Below are positions 1-11,068 of a stretch of 11,352 nt of DNA, piece after piece. The position numbers were made by a program, and so were the translations under genes. The stretch lies in IMG/VR virus record IMGVR_UViG_2648501338_000011. One strand, 5' to 3'. The notes under the pieces are model-generated. The model saw only the letters and a list, made by a program, of their open reading frames with translations, was not told the origin of the DNA and ran no database searches. Numbering within the stretch: the stretch's first letter is position 1; each line of letters begins with the position of its first letter. The stretch is from a virus (Duplodnaviria; Heunggongvirae; Uroviricota; Caudoviricetes).

Positions 1-443
1 CCGACACAGCCGTACTGCCCTTTGCTCAGGTCAGCCCTCGGATGATTCAGCGTACTCATATCCTGCACATCATGCAGACAGTGGTCAGCCGGAATAATAT
101 CGTTATATCTGCAGGCAGCCCCGCCCGGCGTCACTGTACTGCGGCGCGCCAGCTGTTTAATGCGCGGATCCGGAGCATCGTATGAATCCGGCAGCGGAAG
201 CCCTTCACCGTAAGCCATGGCATTGGACTGCCCGGCCAGTACGATGACGTAGTACCAATCCGGCTCAGATGAAGGGCCGACCTGTGGCTCTCCTTCAATA
301 GCCACCGCCTGCATCAGTGTGTACGGCGTAATGGCAACCGGTCCGCCGTATGGCTGCCAGCCCTCTTTCAGTTTGTGTGTCAGCTTTTCCGCAAGGTCTG
401 ACGGCGACGCCGCCCTGACAACATCGTAATGTTTAATCGACAT
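1..443 (-). CDS. nanS: Prophage sialate O-acetylesterase (NanS-p-like), N-terminal part; CDS continues beyond the window start
   Basis: ATG at 443..441 preceded by GGGAG SD. Translation MSIKHYDVVRAASPSDLAEKL... (DUF1737-like N-terminus) followed by VIVLAGQSNAMAYGEGLPLP, the GQSN motif typical of the SGNH/SASA sialate O-acetylesterase family. No stop within the window. Confidence 0.8.
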   Translation of the reverse strand, partial: MSIKHYDVVRAASPSDLAEKLTHKLKEGWQPYGGPVAITPYTLMQAVAIEGEPQVGPSSEPDWYYVIVLAGQSNAMAYGEGLPLPDSYDAPDPRIKQLARRSTVTPGGAACRYNDIIPADHCLHDVQDMSTLNHPRADLSKGQYGCV

Positions 444-529
444 CGAATTTCTCCCGTGTAGAGGAACAGAGTTAAAAAGCCGGAAGCGGAATCAAATCAC
501 AGGATGACCATCTGCCAGTGGCAGGTCAT

Positions 530-556
530 AAAAAAAAGGCTGCGCAATGCGCAGCC
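530..556 (-). terminator. Rho-independent terminator (8-bp GC-rich stem GGCTGCGC/GCGCAGCC, 3-nt loop, followed by T8 on the minus strand)
   Basis: Perfect inverted repeat 538..556 adjacent to an A8 run 530..537 (T8 on the minus strand). A second imperfect hairpin lies immediately next to it at 504..529. Confidence 0.5.
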
Positions 557-985
557 AGAACTCACAAGGAAAATGATAAAAGGAATAACACTAGTGATGT
601 ACGCATGGCGCCTCCCGCTAAGTTCTGCAATGATCAAACAGAACTCGCTACGTGCCCTTAAAACTCGATCATTTAGCCCCTCCAAGGAGGATTCACCATG
701 CGGTTGATTTTTTAATAAACAGTAAACAAAAAAGTCAAGAATTATTCATTCTGTTCTTTCATCATCGGCCACAGCAATACCACAATGCCGCAGACCAGAG
801 CGCCATCAGTCAGTACCAACATTATCCTGCTGGTGAAATCCATCATCACCATCACTAAAAGCAGGATCACAACAGCAAGCAGACACAGTTTATAAAACAA
901 TGTTCAGAAAACGCATTCAGCATGCCTAAGGTTCTATTCCTACGAATAGCCAACTTGCAACTTGAAATATTATTTATGCAGCCAA

Positions 986-1702
986 TTAAATTCTGGTCCT
1001 TACAATATCAACCTGAAGATTCTTATCTTGTGCTGATTGATAAATGACAAACCTTTTACTACCTGCATTGAAAGAAGTAGACAAAACCAGACAATTATCA
1101 TAACGAGCAAGAACATAATACCAACCATCATTATAATTAATCATTTCATATTCTTTCTTAAACTGTGGTTTGTAATATCCTGTCAGAAATGAAAAAAGCC
1201 AAAAATATGCCACAAAAGCAATCATCACAATCTCAAAAAAATGTTTTTTTATAAATGGCTTATCATAGAAGCATGATACCGATAAAAATCGCCCATAAGA
1301 TCTTATCGAAATTGTGACCGCCAGCGCAATCGCTGCTGACAGTAGCAAAAGAGGTACCTGAATCTTCTGTCTCAATATAGAAAACTCAATAATTGCCGGC
1401 ACAAACAATAATTCCACAGCAAAATAAAGGCGAAATACATTTAGCTCTTGCATAGAATGTTTTCTTTTCACTGCGAAAAAGAATACAACACCAATACCCC
1501 AACCGATAAGAAATATAGCAATGACGATAACTGCAAAAAATAAACTTCTGGCAACATCATCAACACCTGCACCTACAATCCACCATGGGAAGCCGTAGTA
1601 AAAAGAAGTACCCCATCCATAGAAATAAGCACTCCCCCATCCAAGGCATCCCATGTAGGCAATAAAAAGTGAAGAACTCCTGAGCAGCGCACCATCCTTC
1701 AT
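986..1702 (-). CDS. Hypothetical low-GC integral membrane protein (about 5 predicted TM segments plus a roughly 55-aa soluble C-terminal tail)
   Basis: Long minus-strand ORF, strongly hydrophobic with Trp/Gly/Tyr-rich N-terminal region; AT-rich codon usage unlike the flanking genes. Start uncertain: ATG at 1702 (MKDGALL...) preferred, alternatives at 1729 and 1744. No family recognised. Confidence 0.55.
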   Translation of the reverse strand: MKDGALLRSSSLFIAYMGCLGWGSAYFYGWGTSFYYGFPWWIVGAGVDDVARSLFFAVIVIAIFLIGWGIGVVFFFAVKRKHSMQELNVFRLYFAVELLFVPAIIEFSILRQKIQVPLLLLSAAIALAVTISIRSYGRFLSVSCFYDKPFIKKHFFEIVMIAFVAYFWLFSFLTGYYKPQFKKEYEMINYNDGWYYVLARYDNCLVLSTSFNAGSKRFVIYQSAQDKNLQVDIVRTRI

Positions 1703-1842
1703 AACCACCCCAATACAAGATGATAACATTGGCTTACAACTCATAACAAAAGCAATTCAATGCCGTCAAGAGGTTACAGGCTAAAAAAACTCTATTACAT
1801 AGCAGCCAGCATGTTTACCGTACAAGTACAACTCAGGGCATA

Positions 1843-1868
1843 AAAAAAACCCACTCGGCAGCGGGTTT
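1843..1868 (-). terminator. Rho-independent terminator about 45 nt downstream of the Q-like gene stop
   Basis: Minus-strand reading AACCCGCTGCCGAGTGGGTT hairpin followed by TTTTTTTT; an A8 run on the other side makes it potentially bidirectional. Confidence 0.6.
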
Positions 1869-1913
1869 ATACATTTTTTACAACATACCAAATTTGCATG
1901 AAGTATATGGCTT

Positions 1914-2603
1914 TTAATCCAGTTTTGCAATATTTTGCTGTAAAAATGCTGCCTTTTGTTTTGAACGTGTTCTCGTCACAAGCAATAAAGCATCACTATC
2001 AAGCTGTAGAAAAATGTGCTTCATTGCAACCCAGCGTTCAGTAAATGTCTCGGACCAGTTTTTTGTTGTCACTCCCACCAATGATGCCAGTGTCTGGTAT
2101 TCATAGGCCTCACGCCCTGCAAGTTCGCTCTTCACATCCTGTGCAGCCAGCCAGATTAACGTCTTCAGGCGATCCAGTGTCTTACCTGCAATTTTTCTGT
2201 TACTTAACAAATCTTTAAACTCGCTCCATGCCCATTGCGTTATGGTGACCTGATGCCCCCATCGAACGCTTTCGCTGTAACACCAAAGCAACCATGCTTT
2301 CTGATGTTCATCGAGAGACAAAACCGCGCGGCGCCATGAAGAGGTTGAGAATTCAACCGGGCTGACCAAAGCAATGGATGAACCTTTTGCGTACGACTGC
2401 TTACCGGAAGTCGGCGTATTATCCAGCGTAATCATCTTGCCAGTTACCACATCCAGAATGCGCGGCTTCTTTCGTTTGTATGTACCAGTATCAAATTGTG
2501 CATGCTCCTGCCAGGCTTCGAGCTGGCCTTTCGTTGCTCCGTTCAAGTCAGCAGTAGCTGCCATAAGTTGCTCACGAACATACTGTAAATATTGGGTATT
2601 CAT
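1914..2603 (-). CDS. Late-gene antiterminator Q-like protein (non-lambda Q type)
   Basis: 229-aa ORF starting MNTQYLQYVREQL at ATG 2603 (AAAGGA SD upstream; the track's longer ORF begins at a GTG with no SD). It occupies the Q position (end of the nin operon, directly followed by a strong terminator). No similarity to the lambda Q zinc-finger sequence; assignment is by position and recollection of Q-like prophage proteins. Confidence 0.6.
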   Translation of the reverse strand: MNTQYLQYVREQLMAATADLNGATKGQLEAWQEHAQFDTGTYKRKKPRILDVVTGKMITLDNTPTSGKQSYAKGSSIALVSPVEFSTSSWRRAVLSLDEHQKAWLLWCYSESVRWGHQVTITQWAWSEFKDLLSNRKIAGKTLDRLKTLIWLAAQDVKSELAGREAYEYQTLASLVGVTTKNWSETFTERWVAMKHIFLQLDSDALLLVTRTRSKQKAAFLQQNIAKLD

Positions 2604-3076
2604 GCAGTAAATCCTTTCTATATTTTGGCATAATTCTTCAACATTCGGTAATCGTTCAAAACCGAATCGGGGAAACGACATAAGCACAGGAGCCCCCAGC
2701 GACAGCGAAGGAGTTCTGATATATAAGACTCAGACATCATTCATTCCCCGGTTCTCCAATATCTGTTTCACTCATCATCCATAACTACCTGTAATTGCCC
2801 CCCTTTTTTTGTAACAGTTCTTATATTGCTATATAGAATAGCCATTACTAATGCATTTAAATTTAATAAAATAAAAATTATAAAAAACATAAAACACCAC
2901 GCAAACACACTTAATAAAAACACCGTTACATTAAAAGATAATAAAACCGCAATAAAAAACGAATAAATCAATTGTCTCACGCAATTATAAAACATCATAT
3001 TGATTACGCACCTTGTATTACAAACTCATGTATGTAAAATACGCGCACCATTCAAAAAAAAGGAAGACAATAACAT
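2604..3076. promoter_or_regulatory. Very AT-rich intergenic region upstream of lpxR, divergent from the Q start; probable promoter/H-NS-type silenced regulatory region
   Basis: About 75-80% A+T over roughly 300 bp with multiple A/T tracts. No specific promoter pinned down. Confidence 0.3.
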
Positions 3077-4036
3077 ATGAAAAAAAGTGTCATCGCTGGC
3101 GTCTTTATTGCTCTGTCATTTACCACGTGTTCAGCTATCGCGAACAGCCTTGCATTATCATTAGCAAATGATGATGCAGGGAAGTTTCAACCAATACTTA
3201 ATGATATTTATGGCAATAAACATGAAAACAGAGATGATTACTCACAAGGCTTATTTCTGGGATATAGCCACGATATCTCAGACTCGAGCCAATTATCTCT
3301 CCATATTGCGCAAGATATTTACTCTCCATCAGGCAGTAATAAAAGACACAACACAGCTGTAACTGGAGACAGAGCTTTTAGTGCATACACTCACACTGGT
3401 ATTGAATGGAACTCCCTTGCGAATGACTGGATTCGCTATCGATTAGGTACTGACATAGGTGTTGTTGGCCCCGACGCAGGCGGTCAGAAAGTACAAAATA
3501 AAGCTCATGAGATTATTGGGGCAGAAAAATATCATGCATGGGATGATCAAATAGAGAATCGCTACGGTTATACTGTAAAAGGGATGCTATCCATGACACC
3601 AAGTATGGATATTTTAGGTGCTAATGTTGGATTATACCCTGAAGTTTCTGCTGTTACTGGAAACTTATTTCAATATGTAGCATATGGCGCAACCATTGCC
3701 ATTGGTAATGATAAAACCTTCAATTCGGATAATGGCTTTGGTCTGCTGGCTCCCCGTGGTTTAATGCATATGTCCGATACAAGCGGATTCAAATACAAGA
3801 TTTTTGCAGGTATGGAAAGACGAGATGTCAATCGCAACTATACTCTCGAAGGAAAAACAATACAGACGAAACAAACAACAGTATCGCTAAACAAAACTGT
3901 TGATGAATATCAAGTTGGCGCAACAATTGGGTATGCACCTGTAGCCTTCACACTAGCATTTAATAAAGTAACATCAGAATTCAAGACAGGGGATGACTAT
4001 TCATTTATAAATGGAGCAATCACCTTCTTTTTTTAA
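3077..4036 (+). CDS. lpxR: Outer-membrane lipid A 3'-O-deacylase LpxR (prophage moron)
   Basis: 319 aa; signal peptide ending AIA; C-terminal ...ITFFF typical of beta-barrel OMPs. With mature numbering from N23, residues N9, D10, S34 and H122 align with the LpxR catalytic set (N9, D10, T34, H122). Gene is lower GC than the neighbouring nin genes. Confidence 0.85.
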   Translation: MKKSVIAGVFIALSFTTCSAIANSLALSLANDDAGKFQPILNDIYGNKHENRDDYSQGLFLGYSHDISDSSQLSLHIAQDIYSPSGSNKRHNTAVTGDRAFSAYTHTGIEWNSLANDWIRYRLGTDIGVVGPDAGGQKVQNKAHEIIGAEKYHAWDDQIENRYGYTVKGMLSMTPSMDILGANVGLYPEVSAVTGNLFQYVAYGATIAIGNDKTFNSDNGFGLLAPRGLMHMSDTSGFKYKIFAGMERRDVNRNYTLEGKTIQTKQTTVSLNKTVDEYQVGATIGYAPVAFTLAFNKVTSEFKTGDDYSFINGAITFFF

Positions 4037-4083
4037 CTGAATTGAATTCAATCAAAATAACATAAGTCCAACAAAAACATAAA

Positions 4084-4118
4084 GTGCGAAATGAATGCCA
4101 GCTCCATTTATTTCGCAC
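4084..4118. terminator. Strong 14-bp stem-loop between the convergent lpxR and phosphatase genes; candidate bidirectional terminator
   Basis: GTGCGAAATGAATG / CATTTATTTCGCAC inverted repeat with a 7-nt loop. U-rich tract is better on the minus strand (TTTATGTTTTTGTT) than on the plus strand. Confidence 0.45.
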
Positions 4119-4247
4119 TATAAAAGATTAAAAGTTGCAATAAAATAATAAAATGACTCAGTTACGAAAACCAATAAACTATGGCCAGTAGTGAGTCGCT
4201 CATCATCGGGCTTTTTGGCGAATGAAATTTAGCTACGCTTTCGAGTC

Positions 4248-4913
4248 TCATGCGCCTTCTCCCTGTACCTGAATCAATGTGAGGTTTCCGCAGAACACTG
4301 CGCCAGTATCGATATACATCTGGTTGGCAAATTTGAGTGGTTTCACTGCTGGCGTATGACCAAAGATGAACGTGTCCGCGCCTTTGATTTCTTTCACGAT
4401 CCCGTCTTGTGAGTTGCTGATTCGTTCGCGGTTCCAGATTACCTGCTGATGATCAACTGGCTTTCCAAACTCGTATTTATCACAAGGATAATCGGCGTGG
4501 CAAATGACATATTTTTTATCTTTGCTCACCAGTTCGATGATTAACGGAAGTTCTTCTGCTTTATGGGCAAGAACTTTAGCCAGAGTCTCTTTGTCGTAAT
4601 CGAGATTAAAGAACCAGCCACCGCCATTAAGCAGCCAGTGATTAACGTTTCCACGCTCTGATAAGCCATCAATCATCATTTGCTCATGGTTTCCACGCAC
4701 AGCTCTGAACCAGGGGAATGTGATTAATTCCAGACATTCGACGTTCTCTGTACCGCGATCAACCAAATCGCCAACCGAGATGAGCAGGTCTTTTTTGGTG
4801 TCGAATCCAATCGTATCCAGTTTGTTCATCAGGTTCGTGTAGCATCCGTGCAGGTCGCCAGCTACCCAAATATTTCGGTATTTGCTGCCATCAATTCTTT
4901 CGTAGATATTCAT
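4248..4913 (-). CDS. ninI: Lambda-type Ser/Thr protein phosphatase (lambda orf221/NinI homolog)
   Basis: 221 aa, with metallophosphoesterase motifs GDLHG, GDLVDRG, GNHE. Start ATG overlaps the ninG stop (ATGA). Confidence 0.9.
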
Positions 4914-5524
4914 GCAGCCTCACTTCTGCTGTTTCGCAGGTCTTTGAGTTTCTGTTGGTACTCTGCCTTGATCGCCTTGCACTCTTCGACAGTCCAGCGA
5001 TGGCGGTTATGGTTTGATTCGATTTCGTCTACTGCTTCCTGCCCGATGCGGCTAATCAGTTCGACGCGATACGGAACGAGATTTCCGCTTTTGTGCTGGT
5101 TGCACACCACGCATTGCTTGTGAATATTGCGTTCATCAAATCGGAGTTGAGGTGCCGCAGCAGTTGTCCGGTAATGTCCGGCATCCCACTGAGCAGACGT
5201 GAGCGTTCCGCACGAGATACATGGTAAGTCGCGGTCTCTTTCTCTGATGAAGGCGTTTACGGCTTGTTGGGCTTGTTTAATCCAGTAACTGCGGGGCTTT
5301 AAGGCGAGTTTTCGAATCTTAAGTTTATCTTTCTGTTTCTGCTCCTCTCGTCGTCGTTTCTTCTCTGCTGCTTTTTCCGCTTTTTCGCGTTCTTTACTTC
5401 GTCGTTCGAGTGCTATCTTGGTTCCACACTCTGGAGAGCACCACCACTGATTAGCGAATGCAGGGTGAAACCATTCCCGACATTCATCGTTTTTACATCG
5501 TCTTCGCGCTGGTTTAGCCATCAT
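4910..5524 (-). CDS. ninG: NinG (Rap) recombination-associated protein
   Basis: 204 aa, [33 protein letters not shown]..., recognised as lambda NinG with conserved Cys clusters; position between ninF and the phosphatase. Confidence 0.9.
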
Positions 5525-5684
5525 CTTCTTCCTCGTGCATCGAGCTATTCGAATCGCTCATCAGCTCTGCACAGCAGTGCTCACACACGTGAACTTCCAG
5601 CACATGCAGCTTCTGACCGCAATTAGCGCACGTTAAAGCCCGCTCGACGCTTTCTTGTTCGTAACTTCGATTTGGGTCAATCAC
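5514..5684 (-). CDS. ninF: NinF
   Basis: C-terminal ...[34 protein letters not shown]...EEEDDG matches lambda NinF. No ATG is available; a GTG at 5684 overlaps the ninE stop (GTGA), and an alternative GTG at 5726 would give 70 aa. Confidence 0.7.
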
Positions 5685-5863
5685 CTTGTATTCCTCGCAC
5701 GATGTCTTAGCCACCGGATATCCCACAGGTGAGCCGTGTAGTTGAAGGTTTTTACGTCAGATTCTTTTGGGATTGGCTTGCGTTTATTTCTGGAGCGTTT
5801 CGTTGGAAGGTATTTGCAGTTTTCGCAGATGATGTCGGTGAAACTTCGTCGTTGTCGCCTCAT
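5681..5863 (-). CDS. ninE: NinE
   Basis: 60 aa, [23 protein letters not shown]..., matches lambda NinE; start overlaps the methyltransferase stop (ATGA). Confidence 0.85.
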
Positions 5864-6387
5864 GCCGCCCTCCTGACGCCCTGCCCGATCGCCATCAATG
5901 CCGCTTTGGATACGATAGTAAACATCCGTCGAGGACTAATGAACGGTCGCCAAATCAGCAGCATGGAGCCTTTGCTGTTTCCCTTCTTCTCCAGCCCTGT
6001 CGATGGTTCGATAAAATTAATCCGTCCATCAGTGATAATACGAACTTCGTCAACACTCTCCAGAGCCTTGCTGAACCATCCGACAGACATATCCTCTGGC
6101 ACAAGCATCACTACCGTCTGTCGCTGTTGTATGCACTGCTCAGCGGCTTTTTCCACCCACGGCCTGATATTGCTGTACGGTGGGTTATTCCAGATTGCAC
6201 CGTGGCTTATCCACTCAGAATTTAGCGCGTCGTCAGCCTCAGTTAGCCAGTGAGCGCACAGAGCGTTTTTGTCGCTCGCTGCCGAATCCAGCCAGAATCC
6301 AAACTCAATATCCAGTGCATCAAAAAGCCAAAGCGGCGTTTGCCAGCAGTCCTTGTCGTGTGCTGGCGTATTTGATTTGATAGTCAT
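5860..6387 (-). CDS. Phage orphan DNA N6-adenine methyltransferase (Dam-like)
   Basis: 175 aa from ATG 6387 ([26 protein letters not shown]...), containing the NPPY catalytic motif (WNNPPYS). Start overlaps the ninB stop (ATGA). It occupies the ninC/ninD position of lambda. Confidence 0.85.
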
Positions 6388-6824
6388 GCAGCCCGATCTC
6401 CCCATCGCGCTTTCCATTCGAGAGCCAGTCGCGCTTCGTCTGACCACTTAACGCCACGCTCTGTACCGAATGCCTGTATAAGCTCTAATAGCTCCGCAAA
6501 TTCGCTTACACGCATCCTGCTGGTTGGCTGGCCTATTACCACAAAGCCATTCCCGGCAAGGTTAGGAACAACATCCTGCTGCTTTAATGCTGCGGTAAAC
6601 ACACACTTCCAGCTTTCTGCATCCAGCCAGCGACCATGCCATTCAACCTGACGAGAGACGTCACCTAAGCAGGCCCATAGCTTCCTGTTTTGGTCTAAGC
6701 TGCGGTTGCGTTCCTGAATGGTTACTACGATTGGTTTGGTCGGGTCTGGAAGGATTTGCTGTACTGCGTGAATAGCGTTTTGCTGATGTGCTGGAGATCG
6801 AATTTCAAAGGTTAGTTTTTTCAT
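6384..6824 (-). CDS. ninB: NinB (Orf-family recombination mediator)
   Basis: 146 aa from ATG 6824 (MKKLTFEIRSPAHQQNAIHAVQQILPDPTKPIVVTIQERNRSLDQNRKLW...), essentially lambda NinB; GGAG-type SD upstream. Confidence 0.9.
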   Translation of the reverse strand: MKKLTFEIRSPAHQQNAIHAVQQILPDPTKPIVVTIQERNRSLDQNRKLWACLGDVSRQVEWHGRWLDAESWKCVFTAALKQQDVVPNLAGNGFVVIGQPTSRMRVSEFAELLELIQAFGTERGVKWSDEARLALEWKARWGDRAA

Positions 6825-6840
6825 GACTTCCCTCTCCCCC

Positions 6841-6872
6841 AAATAAAAAGGCCTGCGATTACCAGCAGGCCT
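6841..6872 (-). terminator. tR2-like rho-independent terminator between ren and ninB
   Basis: AGGCCTGC / GCAGGCCT 8-bp stem with 8-nt loop, followed on the minus strand by TTTTATTT; the position corresponds to lambda tR2. Confidence 0.6.
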
Positions 6873-6897
6873 GTTATTAGCTCAGTGATGTAGATGG

Positions 6898-7184
6898 TCA
6901 TCTTTTAACTCCATATACCGCCAATACCCGTTTCATCGCGGCACTCTGGCGACACTCCTTAAAAATCAGGTTCGTGCTCATCTTTCCTTCCCGTTCTTCC
7001 CTAGTAGCGAACCGGTAATACACCGTTCGCCAGACCTTACCTTCGATAACCAGAAGACCTGCCCGTGCCATTTTAGCCGCGGCCTGATTTATGCTGGTTA
7101 CTGTTGCGCCTGTTAACGCGGCAACGTCCGGCGCACAGAAGCTATTATGCGTCCCCAGGTAATGAATAATTGCCTCTTTGCCCG

Positions 7185-7188
<4 letters not shown>
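6898..7188 (-). CDS. ren: Ren
   Basis: 96 aa, MTGKEAIIHYLGTHNSFCAPDVAALTGATVTSINQAAAKMARAG..., matches lambda Ren; start overlaps the P stop. Confidence 0.9.
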
Positions 7189-9514
<2,326 letters not shown>

Positions 9515-9866: not shown

Positions 9867-10190
9867 ATGGATGCACAAACACGCCGCCGCGAACGTCGCG
9901 CAGAGAAACAGGCTCAATGGAAAGCAGCAAATCCCCTGTTGGTTGGGGTAAGCGCTAAACCAGTTAACCGCCCTATTCTCTCGCTGAATCGCAAACCGAA
10001 ATCACGAGTAGAAAGCGCACTGAATCCGATAGACCTTACGGTGCTGGCTGAATACCACGAACAGATTGAAAGCAACCTGCAACGTATTGAGCGCAAGAAT
10101 CATCGAGTTTGGTATAGCAAGCCAGGTGAGTTCGGTATAACTTGTCAAGGAAGACAAAAGGTTAAAGGGGAATCCATTCCATTGGCATGA
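9867..10190 (+). CDS. N: Antitermination protein N
   Basis: 107 aa, MDAQTRRRERRAEKQAQWKAANPLLVGVSAKPVNRPILSLNRKPKSRVESALNPIDLTVLAEYH...; arginine-rich boxB-binding motif; AGGAGA SD. The track ORF from 9735 is an upstream in-frame extension. Confidence 0.95.
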   Translation: MDAQTRRRERRAEKQAQWKAANPLLVGVSAKPVNRPILSLNRKPKSRVESALNPIDLTVLAEYHEQIESNLQRIERKNHRVWYSKPGEFGITCQGRQKVKGESIPLA

Positions 10191-10198
10191 GGTACGTA

Positions 10199-11068
10199 AT
10201 GAAGAAGATTGATTACAAGTCCATACCAAAACCAATAGACTCAGCATCAGAGCGAAAAAAACACAAAAAAGAGGCTGAAAAATTAGCAAATTATATCAGT
10301 TTTATTAGAAACAATGCTCACGGCGATGGCGACAAGAAGTTGCTTTCAGATGCTCGGACCCAAGCGTTCGGTATACTTCGTAAGCAGATGCAATATCGTC
10401 TTCATCCTGGCTACATAATTGAAATTCGCCCTACTGAAAGACAATTGTTCTTATTAAACTCTGTCTTTGACTTTGTAAACGTAGTTGGAGATCTTATCGA
10501 CAGGTCTGTAGATAAGGATCCTGATACAAATAGTTTTCTTCTAACAAATAAAGAATACTTATATGGTAAATTCGGTATAAACGGATGGCAAAAATATGTA
10601 CGCTTCTTACGTGCATTCGTTGATGCGTATAAAAATTCCGACATGATTTATACATATTTGCCTGGTGGTGATAATTGTACGCTTTCGGCAGACAATAGAA
10701 TATTCATACCTGTACTTGGTCTTGGGCTGATTAATGCAGTAAATGAAAAAGATGTTATAATTGTTAAGCAGTGGCGAAAATATGAGGGATATAGATATCT
10801 GCCATGCTTTGATATATTAAAAATACAGAATAAATTCTATGTAAAAATTAAATATAAAGAAGATATTTTCTTCCTCAGAAAAAACAAAGATCTTTTACAA
10901 GAACTTTCTGGTACAATAGATGTCATCTTAGGTTCTAGGTTTATAAAAGAACTGAAAGAAAGCAGGTCTTTCTCTCGTGTAGAGATAAGCGAGTCAGAGT
11001 TATGGGGTATATCAAATAATCCTGTAAACCACGCTCACCAACGAAACCCAAACAAAAAGTGGTCATAA
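10199..11068 (+). CDS. Hypothetical low-GC cytoplasmic protein (289 aa) immediately downstream of N
   Basis: ATG at 10199 preceded by GAGGT SD (the track start at 10187 overlaps the N stop). Lys/Arg-rich, no TM segments, A+T-rich codon usage contrasting with N. No family recognised. Confidence 0.6.
   Translation: MKKIDYKSIPKPIDSASERKKHKKEAEKLANYISFIRNNAHGDGDKKLLSDARTQAFGILRKQMQYRLHPGYIIEIRPTERQLFLLNSVFDFVNVVGDLIDRSVDKDPDTNSFLLTNKEYLYGKFGINGWQKYVRFLRAFVDAYKNSDMIYTYLPGGDNCTLSADNRIFIPVLGLGLINAVNEKDVIIVKQWRKYEGYRYLPCFDILKIQNKFYVKIKYKEDIFFLRKNKDLLQELSGTIDVILGSRFIKELKESRSFSRVEISESELWGISNNPVNHAHQRNPNKKWS

Follow-up and report, generated by a model that had tools for sequence, protein, structure and literature searches.

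The lpxR gene of Salmonella Typhimurium, whose product has a solved structure (3FID), is chromosomal and non-phage, in a thrS / lpxR / DUF481 / pfkB neighborhood; that of Yersinia enterocolitica is also chromosomal, its regulators being RovA and PhoPQ and not Ler and Pch (PMC3486919). In the Yersinia protein, an enzyme with serine at mature position 34, the N9A, D10A, S34A, H122A, and Q118A mutants gave no lipid A deacylation (PMC3486919), and Ca2+ binding by N9, D10, and T34, together with the role of H122, has been discussed in PMC6260217. In prophage Sp3 of Escherichia coli O157:H7 Sakai, the gene ECs_0814, annotated as "lpxR, lipid A 3′-O-deacylase," is located between pphA and Q. For the O157 protein, 3′-O-deacylase activity and lowered phagocytosis were reported (Ogawa 2018, as cited in PMC6393859), and activation of lpxR in EHEC was reported to need Pch and Ler (Ogawa 2018, cited by reviews and by a modulon study). 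The modulon study places lpxR in the LEE/Ler modulon, a population study found a strong association between lpxR and the LEE across strains, and the protein has already been used as a vaccine antigen. Phage 434 (OL657226) carries CPT_434_65, annotated as "outer membrane beta-barrel lipid A deacylase LpxR." No paper connecting lpxR with phage 434 or prophage Sp3 emerged from our literature search. Extra genes in lambdoid genomes are called morons in the sense of Hendrix and colleagues; the lysogenic-conversion genes bor and lom of lambda are single extra genes of deviant composition at module junctions, with outer-membrane products, expression independent of phage operons, and an effect on host-pathogen interaction.

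The window (the whole 11,352-nt stretch of DNA analyzed here) is a lambdoid prophage, with its orientation reversed relative to the usual lambda map. It was 99.6% identical to phage 434 over window positions 1-8288 and 100% identical over 8288-9181, and the nearest complete E. coli genomes showed 99.7-99.8% identity to it. The prophage carries imm434. Relative to phage 434 it lacks 1047 bp: a cro-to-O deletion has left 30 codons from the start of cro fused in frame with the final 141 codons of O and has taken out nutR, boxA, cII, oop, the origin iterons, the 3′ end of cro, and the 5′ end of O. The features referred to below are as follows.

986-1744, minus strand: orf252, a flanking gene.
1914-2603, minus strand: Q, a late-gene antiterminator of the Q82 type; its ATG at 2603 gives 229 aa (Pfam PF06323, 1.7e-91).
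2618-2740, minus strand: ylcG-family small gene, 40 aa, part of a rusA-ylcG-Q82 module (NCBIfam NF033498, 7.4e-13; phage 82 alignment; existing annotations).
2756..3076, no strand assigned: A+T-rich region, candidate H-NS/Ler-responsive region specific to this lpxR cassette (composition; occurrence in 620 genomes; end of phage 82 homology).
3013..3040, plus strand: candidate promoter-like core, with -35 TTGTAT (3013-3018), a 16-nt spacer, and -10 TAAAAT (3035-3040).
3077..4036, plus strand: lpxR coding sequence, ATG start, 319 aa (Pfam PF09982; 3FID match; catalytic residues; 100% identity to known alleles).
3077-3142, plus strand: putative lpxR signal peptide, 22 aa (AXA cleavage motif in the sequence).
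4083..4119, plus strand: hairpin, 46 nt past the lpxR stop codon (folding; conservation beside lpxR).
4162..4251, minus strand: remnant of a lambda-type Q, a 29-codon open reading frame overlapping the phosphatase stop codon (lambda alignment; annotations; phrog_127 Q-like match).
4248-4913, minus strand: ninI/pphA serine/threonine phosphatase, final nin-region gene ahead of the cassette (Pfam Metallophos, 3.4e-16; annotations).
Elsewhere in the window, minus strand: P, ren, ninB, adenine methyltransferase, ninE, ninF, and ninG (gene content of the window).
8481-9113, plus strand: phage 434 repressor (gene content of the window).
Elsewhere in the window, plus strand: lambda-type N (gene content of the window).

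Taken together with the published work, the region is very probably the lpxR cassette already known from prophages of LEE-positive E. coli and from phage 434, with its own promoter, in A+T-rich DNA, controlled by Ler and Pch. The window protein was 100% identical both to ECs_0814 and to CPT_434_65. It matched the Pfam LpxR family (PF09982) with an E-value of 6.8e-40 and a score of 137.4 bits (curated cut-off, 26) over residues 10-318 of 319, and matched 3FID, a 12-stranded barrel, over the whole mature chain (E 3.6e-153, approximately 73% identity), query residues 24-319 being colinear with chain residues 2-296 with a single one-residue gap. Judged by these alignments, the match is far beyond chance. 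The N-terminus, MKKSVIAGVFIALSFTTCSAIA|NS, contains an AXA cleavage motif, and from this reading of the sequence cleavage is expected after AIA22. The mature product is thus predicted to be a 297-aa outer-membrane beta-barrel lipid A 3′-O-deacylase.

In mature numbering, N9, D10, S34, K67, Q118, and H122 were all present. When the window protein was aligned with eleven homologues (identity down to 53%), N31, D32, K89, Q140, and H144 (precursor numbering) were invariant in the 12 sequences, and mature position 34 was either S or T. The preliminary description of this DNA had proposed a 319-aa outer-membrane protein gene, lpxR, opposite to all surrounding phage genes, with the catalytic residues N9, D10, S/T34, and H122. 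These proposals held: the gene occupies 3077..4036 on the plus strand, it is the only plus-strand gene for approximately 4 kb on either side (all its neighbors being on the minus strand), K67 and Q118 can be added to the residues, and alignment with the characterized enzyme 3FID ran end to end with no loss of catalytic residues. By homology, then, lpxR here encodes a complete LpxR whose active site is intact. The protein would be exported by way of its 22-aa signal peptide to form an outer-membrane beta-barrel, where a Ca2+ site formed by N9, D10, and S34, together with H122, would remove the 3′-acyloxyacyl group from lipid A, so that the cell may be less recognized by innate immunity.

The Salmonella protein has the same length as that of the window and shares N9, D10, K67, Q118, and H122 with it; at three positions, however, the residues differ (G31, T34, and A35 in Salmonella; D31, S34, and Q35 in the window protein). 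The latter three residues are those of the Yersinia enterocolitica protein (69% identical), and D31 and Q35 are found in most homologues. Expression of Yersinia LpxR in E. coli MG1655 gave a lipid A species of m/z 1360, devoid of the 3′-acyloxyacyl group, and the Yersinia work used a pmrF mutant as a background free of aminoarabinose modification (PMC3486919). D31 blocks the action of Yersinia LpxR on aminoarabinose-modified lipid A (PMC3486919). Since D31 is shared with Yersinia, the same latency in the window protein is a reasonable prediction: by analogy, D31 and Q35 would render it inactive on lipid A modified in this way.

The limits of the inserted DNA were placed by homology with two phages in which lpxR is absent from this position, the reference arrangements being ninI followed directly by Q in lambda and rus-orf45-Q in phage 82. 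On the left, phage 82 homology spanned Q, ylcG, and approximately 15 bp of the end of rus and stopped at approximately 2755, that is, approximately 15 bp upstream of the ylcG start codon, where a 15-bp rusA remnant lies. On the right, lambda homology began at approximately 4182: window positions 4182-4247 (66 bp) were approximately 97% identical to lambda 43890-43955, the start of Q (whose coding sequence begins at 43886). This lambda-Q fragment joins the phosphatase gene directly, as in lambda; the phage 434 record annotates it as the N-terminal fragment of a Q, and RefSeq gives it as a partial antitermination protein. The complete Q at 1914-2603 is annotated as "Q82-like" in the phage 434 record, with its start at MNT. 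Because homology stops at approximately 2755 and 4182, the foreign segment extends from approximately 2756 to 4181 (1.43 kb), and it holds one gene, lpxR. The segment was 64% A+T (vs. 54-55% in Q and ninI), and lpxR had a GC3 of 0.30 (vs. 0.46-0.51 in neighboring genes). Genomes without the cassette showed either rusA-ylcG-Q or phosphatase-Q. By these comparisons lpxR can be called a moron, being inserted where related phages have adjoining genes and having a deviant composition, and the homology breaks bear out its earlier placement as a moron between the nin/phosphatase module and Q. The cassette lies at the junction of two lambdoid modules, one comprising nin and the truncated lambda Q and the other rusA′-ylcG-Q82. 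Like bor and lom, lpxR is a single extra gene at a module junction with an outer-membrane product; unlike them, it lies between nin and Q, antisense to the early-right operon, and its predicted product is a lipid A enzyme instead of an adhesin or a serum-resistance lipoprotein.

Direct and inverted repeats were examined at the cassette borders, and no transposon-like flanking repeats were found. The only repeat obtained was 12 nt long with 11 of 12 matches (2768-2779 and 4196-4207, spacing 1428); it was rejected as a sign of transposition or target-site duplication because it lies off the homology breakpoints and is at chance level, approximately three such matches being estimated by chance in 1.7 kb. 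A 76-aa minus-strand open reading frame at 2768-2998, preceded by a Shine-Dalgarno-like AAGGTG ending 12 nt before its ATG, was considered as a membrane-protein gene and rejected: it had no Pfam or NCBIfam match, is unannotated in RefSeq and in the curated phage 434 record, and had as its only support a 40-aa PHROG of unknown function. This open reading frame is probably spurious. A scan of the whole window against Rfam, at E-values up to 1, gave no RNA family match within 2604-4247.

In Sakai Sp3 the neighbors (pphA - lpxR - Q) and the orientation are those of the window, and the 3-kb Q-lpxR-phosphatase block was 99.2% identical; window positions 419-5871 align with Sp3, which, unlike the window, has lost the immunity and replication region, whereas the window retains imm434 and has the cro-to-O deletion. 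Phage 434 shares with the window the identical LpxR and the same ylcG, Q82-like Q, lambda-Q fragment, and phosphatase neighbors, but it is intact and plaque-forming and has cro, nutR, cII, O, and the origin.

Among complete E. coli genomes, 622 of 5426 contained the cassette (615 of them at an identity of at least 99%), and 431 genomes showed the full Q-lpxR-phosphatase arrangement. The sampled O111:H8 genomes kept Q-ylcG-lpxR and the lambda-Q fragment, with ninH beyond. More distant lineages of lpxR were found in other contexts. The lineage with 85% identity (L007) adjoins cdtABC and an IS element; the lineage with 80% identity (L011-L015) is plasmid-borne, surrounded by IS remnants and a gene for an M91 peptidase, and is also found in metagenomic contigs, beside an AraC-like (HTH_18) gene; and the lineage with 70% identity (L009) belongs to another lambdoid prophage, at a site downstream of Q. 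Chromosomal copies were found near phoPQ (L014) and in Salmonella (L010). The cdt-linked copy retains the same junction with the lambda-Q fragment, and therefore the cdt island that carries lpxR was probably derived from a lambdoid phage.

Upstream of lpxR, A+T content was 72.2% over 2768-3076, 72.7% over 2777-3076, and 76.1% in the core of the region (2800-3000), compared with 55.5% for the whole window. The figure of 75-80% A+T given in the preliminary description for approximately 300 bp upstream of the gene is right for the core and slightly high for the full stretch. The A+T-rich region occurred as a single copy in each of 620 E. coli genomes, a total that differs by two from the 622 with the cassette, and no feature was annotated under it in those 620 genomes. 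Within it, the promoter-like core at 3013-3040 would place the start of lpxR transcription near 3047, with the ribosome-binding site AGGA at 3061-3064. This core was common to the window and to the 85% and 80% lineages, whereas the window DNA farther upstream was unlike that of either lineage. The -35 hexamer TTGTAT matches the consensus at three of six positions. A consensus scan of positions 2400-4400 did not call the candidate core, and promoter-like sites were fewer in this interval than in shuffled sequences (5 vs. 7.0).

From the sequence and the conserved core, we infer that lpxR has its own promoter in the A+T-rich DNA, probably at 3013-3040. Genes of LEE strains that are silenced by H-NS and activated by Ler have A+T-rich upstream DNA, and the upstream region of lpxR (72-76% vs. 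55.5%) is of this kind. H-NS would then keep the promoter silent by default, and Pch and Ler would switch it on in LEE-carrying strains. The suggestion already made for this DNA, of a promoter belonging to lpxR and probably silenced, is consistent with the A+T-rich upstream DNA, with the conserved promoter-like core, and with the activation by Pch and Ler as reported in the citing literature.

Host-type regulation of this sort bears on the reason for which lpxR is kept. Phage 434, a fully functional laboratory phage, carries the gene; it was isolated and is propagated on non-pathogenic E. coli without Ler and Pch. LpxR homologues also occupy another lambdoid site (downstream of Q, in the 70% lineage). 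Both observations would fit a gene kept mainly for the benefit of the phage, for example through altered properties of the outer membrane, through vesiculation, or through a change in susceptibility to other phages, and not for immune evasion by the host. Nevertheless, lpxR points against the phage operons, is regulated in the manner of a host gene, and is both associated with the LEE island across strains and co-regulated with it. In addition, 3′-O-deacylation of lipid A is not known to alter the usual lambdoid protein receptors. We consider maintenance mainly for the benefit of the phage very unlikely, and we retain the interpretation of a cassette controlled by Ler and Pch.

The cro-to-O deletion raises a different possibility, namely that lpxR in the window is a silent passenger without current function in a decaying prophage, given that the in-frame fusion of cro and O has removed nutR, cII, oop, and the origin. 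The lpxR open reading frame, its upstream region, and the hairpin are all intact, however, and the window protein is identical to the studied Sakai allele, which is itself located in a degraded prophage (in Sp3, integrase, bet, and the portal gene are pseudogenized). If transcribed from its own promoter, lpxR would not require phage functions and would be unaffected by the deletion. For the window copy, a passenger without function is considered very unlikely, and a functional lpxR cassette remains the preferred one.

The strong 14-bp hairpin previously noted as ending at 4118 was essentially correct: 4083-4097 pairs with 4105-4119 in a stem of 15 pairs, one of them G.U, closed by a 7-nt loop. 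The plus-strand fold had a free energy of -19.1 kcal/mol (z = -6.5), and none of 200 shuffled sequences was as stable; on the minus strand the free energy was -16.0 kcal/mol (z = -3.95). The plus-strand tail after the stem is UAUAAAAGAUUAAAAG; with no U-tract on the lpxR strand, the hairpin does not have the form of a canonical intrinsic terminator of that gene. On the minus strand, the base of the stem is G+C-rich and is followed directly by UUUAUGUUUUUGUU, a U-rich tail. A terminator scan of positions 2400-4400 called the hairpin on neither strand. The hairpin was retained next to lpxR in three contexts (the window, the cdt/IS island, and the plasmid); because it is conserved in the three lpxR lineages, it is part of the lpxR cassette and not of the phage. 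In the 85% lineage (L007) the plus strand was again the more stable (-16.7 vs. -10.8 kcal/mol), whereas in the L011 lineage the minus strand was (-14.1 vs. -15.1 kcal/mol). Two wobble positions, the conserved G.U and a C-to-T change in L007, pair on the plus strand only and give A.C mismatches on the minus strand.

The hairpin may act mainly on the opposite strand, as an intrinsic terminator that stops early-right transcription before it runs antisense through lpxR, instead of as a terminator of lpxR itself; lpxR would then be insulated in the lysogen, and expression of Q would depend on antitermination by N. This proposal accounts for the G+C-rich stem base and the UUUAUGUUUUUGUU that follows it on the minus strand, compared with UAUAAAAGAUUAAAAG on the plus strand, and a U-rich minus-strand tail was present in all three lpxR lineages examined. 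Yet the plus-strand fold is the more stable in the window and in L007 (not in L011), the wobble positions maintain pairing on the plus strand and not on the minus strand, and the plus strand is A-rich on both sides of the hairpin, so that the U-rich tail may simply reflect composition. Moreover, the hairpin accompanies lpxR into non-phage contexts (the cdt/IS island and the plasmid) that have no early operon for it to stop, and the terminator scan made no call on the minus strand or the plus strand. A mainly minus-strand role thus seems unlikely. As a stable stem-loop that travels with the gene, the structure would form the end of lpxR; it may serve as a non-canonical terminator or stabilizer of lpxR mRNA, as a terminator facing the phage early operon, or as both.

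Given the gene order, phage transcripts bound for Q would traverse approximately 1.4 kb of untranslated antisense lpxR. Between the stop of the lambda-Q fragment (4162) and the start of ylcG (2740) there are 1421 nt, in which no minus-strand open reading frame exceeds 76 aa; hence, early-right transcripts can arrive at Q only after a long antisense stretch that is not translated. From what is established for lambda, such a stretch should make expression of Q strongly dependent on N antitermination. Phage 434 is viable with this layout, which is therefore compatible with lytic growth. For the window copy, the statement in the preliminary description that early-right transcription must cross lpxR in antisense to reach Q holds with respect to gene order and to the 1421 nt, but it is largely moot because the deletion removed nutR, cII, and the origin, and read-through to Q that depends on N cannot work here in the way it does in intact phage 434. 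The consequences of the antisense crossing apply to intact relatives such as phage 434 and not to the window prophage.

At this locus, convergent transcription could couple virulence regulation in the host to phage development, although the arrangement may have no regulatory effect; we give this coupling little credence. If it did occur, transcription of lpxR driven by Ler and Pch would, together with the conserved hairpin, which resembles a terminator on the phage strand, hinder early-right transcripts on their 1.4-kb untranslated antisense way to Q and delay or dampen the late genes, and prophage induction would conversely silence lpxR.

The identification is correct but ordinary, as the gene, its place, and its regulation are all known. 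Anatomical detail is all that is added here: precise limits for the foreign segment, a truncated lambda Q at its junction, a candidate promoter core and a hairpin that accompany lpxR among phages, the cdt island, and plasmids, and the prediction made from D31 and Q35. LpxR lowers the endotoxic signal of lipid A, and therefore a phage that carries lpxR can change how the immune system views its lysogen, an effect on immune recognition already established for the identical gene of O157:H7, a gene that is also annotated in phage 434.

Comparison with reference phage 434 showed that the window prophage is without 1047 bp present in that phage and that cro and O are fused in frame:

7883-8509 (-), ORF of the in-frame cro'-'O fusion, junction at window position 8288

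The 1047-bp loss takes the 3' end of cro, boxA/nutR, cII, oop, and the 5' half of O together with the ori iterons. The cro-to-O region was whole in all nearest complete genomes, and matches there were 1066 bp longer than the window. Because it lacks these elements, the prophage is defective for replication and antitermination. An accessory-type position was occupied in the early-left operon, where the site downstream of N frequently carries accessory genes in lambdoid phages:

10187-11068 (+), 293-aa ORF directly 3' of N

Close relatives annotate this ORF as a hypothetical protein only.

Two matches resembling small RNAs were found near the antiterminator gene Q:

527-731 (-), STnc100-like sRNA match (41.4 bits, E 2.5e-6)
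1838-1907 (-), weak STnc240-like match (28.2 bits, E 0.87)

The STnc100-like match, which falls below the gathering score of 47, lies downstream of the 252-aa membrane-protein gene and has a hairpin and a U-run at its terminus. According to a 2026 preprint, the PasD sRNAs are structurally related to STnc100 and are found <10 kb from Q and LpxR in >98% of cases. The element is probably a PasD-family gene. The STnc240-like match lies directly past the Q stop codon, and its end is formed by a G+C-rich hairpin with a U-run. Plausibly, this element represents the short transcript from the late promoter, together with its terminator, that Q82-type antiterminators act upon.

A 12-nt direct repeat (11/12 identical; 2768-2779 and 4196-4207) was observed near the borders of the foreign lpxR cassette. 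The spacing of 1428 bp is near the cassette length, and both homology breakpoints are offset from the repeat copies; by our estimate, about three such repeats are expected by chance in the stretch. The A+T-rich DNA upstream of lpxR also contains an ORF in the direction of the phage early operon:

2768-2998 (-), very hydrophobic 76-aa ORF, last 40 aa matching phrog_21286 (unknown function)

No annotation for this ORF was found in RefSeq or in the phage 434 record, and it probably arises artefactually from T-rich codons.

More distant lpxR genes were found in other settings. An 80% identical copy on the 101-kb E. coli plasmid pJNE23-001_1 (6046-7005) sits among remnants of IS elements and a gene for an M91 (NleD-like) metallopeptidase, and two related metagenomic contigs carry an AraC-like (HTH_18) gene upstream of the same lpxR. 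An 85% identical copy (4228-5370 of contig ABLQUB010000046.1) adjoins cdtABC and an IS transposase gene. This copy keeps the 3' hairpin of the window and the same junction with the 5' fragment of lambda-type Q, which suggests that the cdt island was derived from a lambdoid phage.
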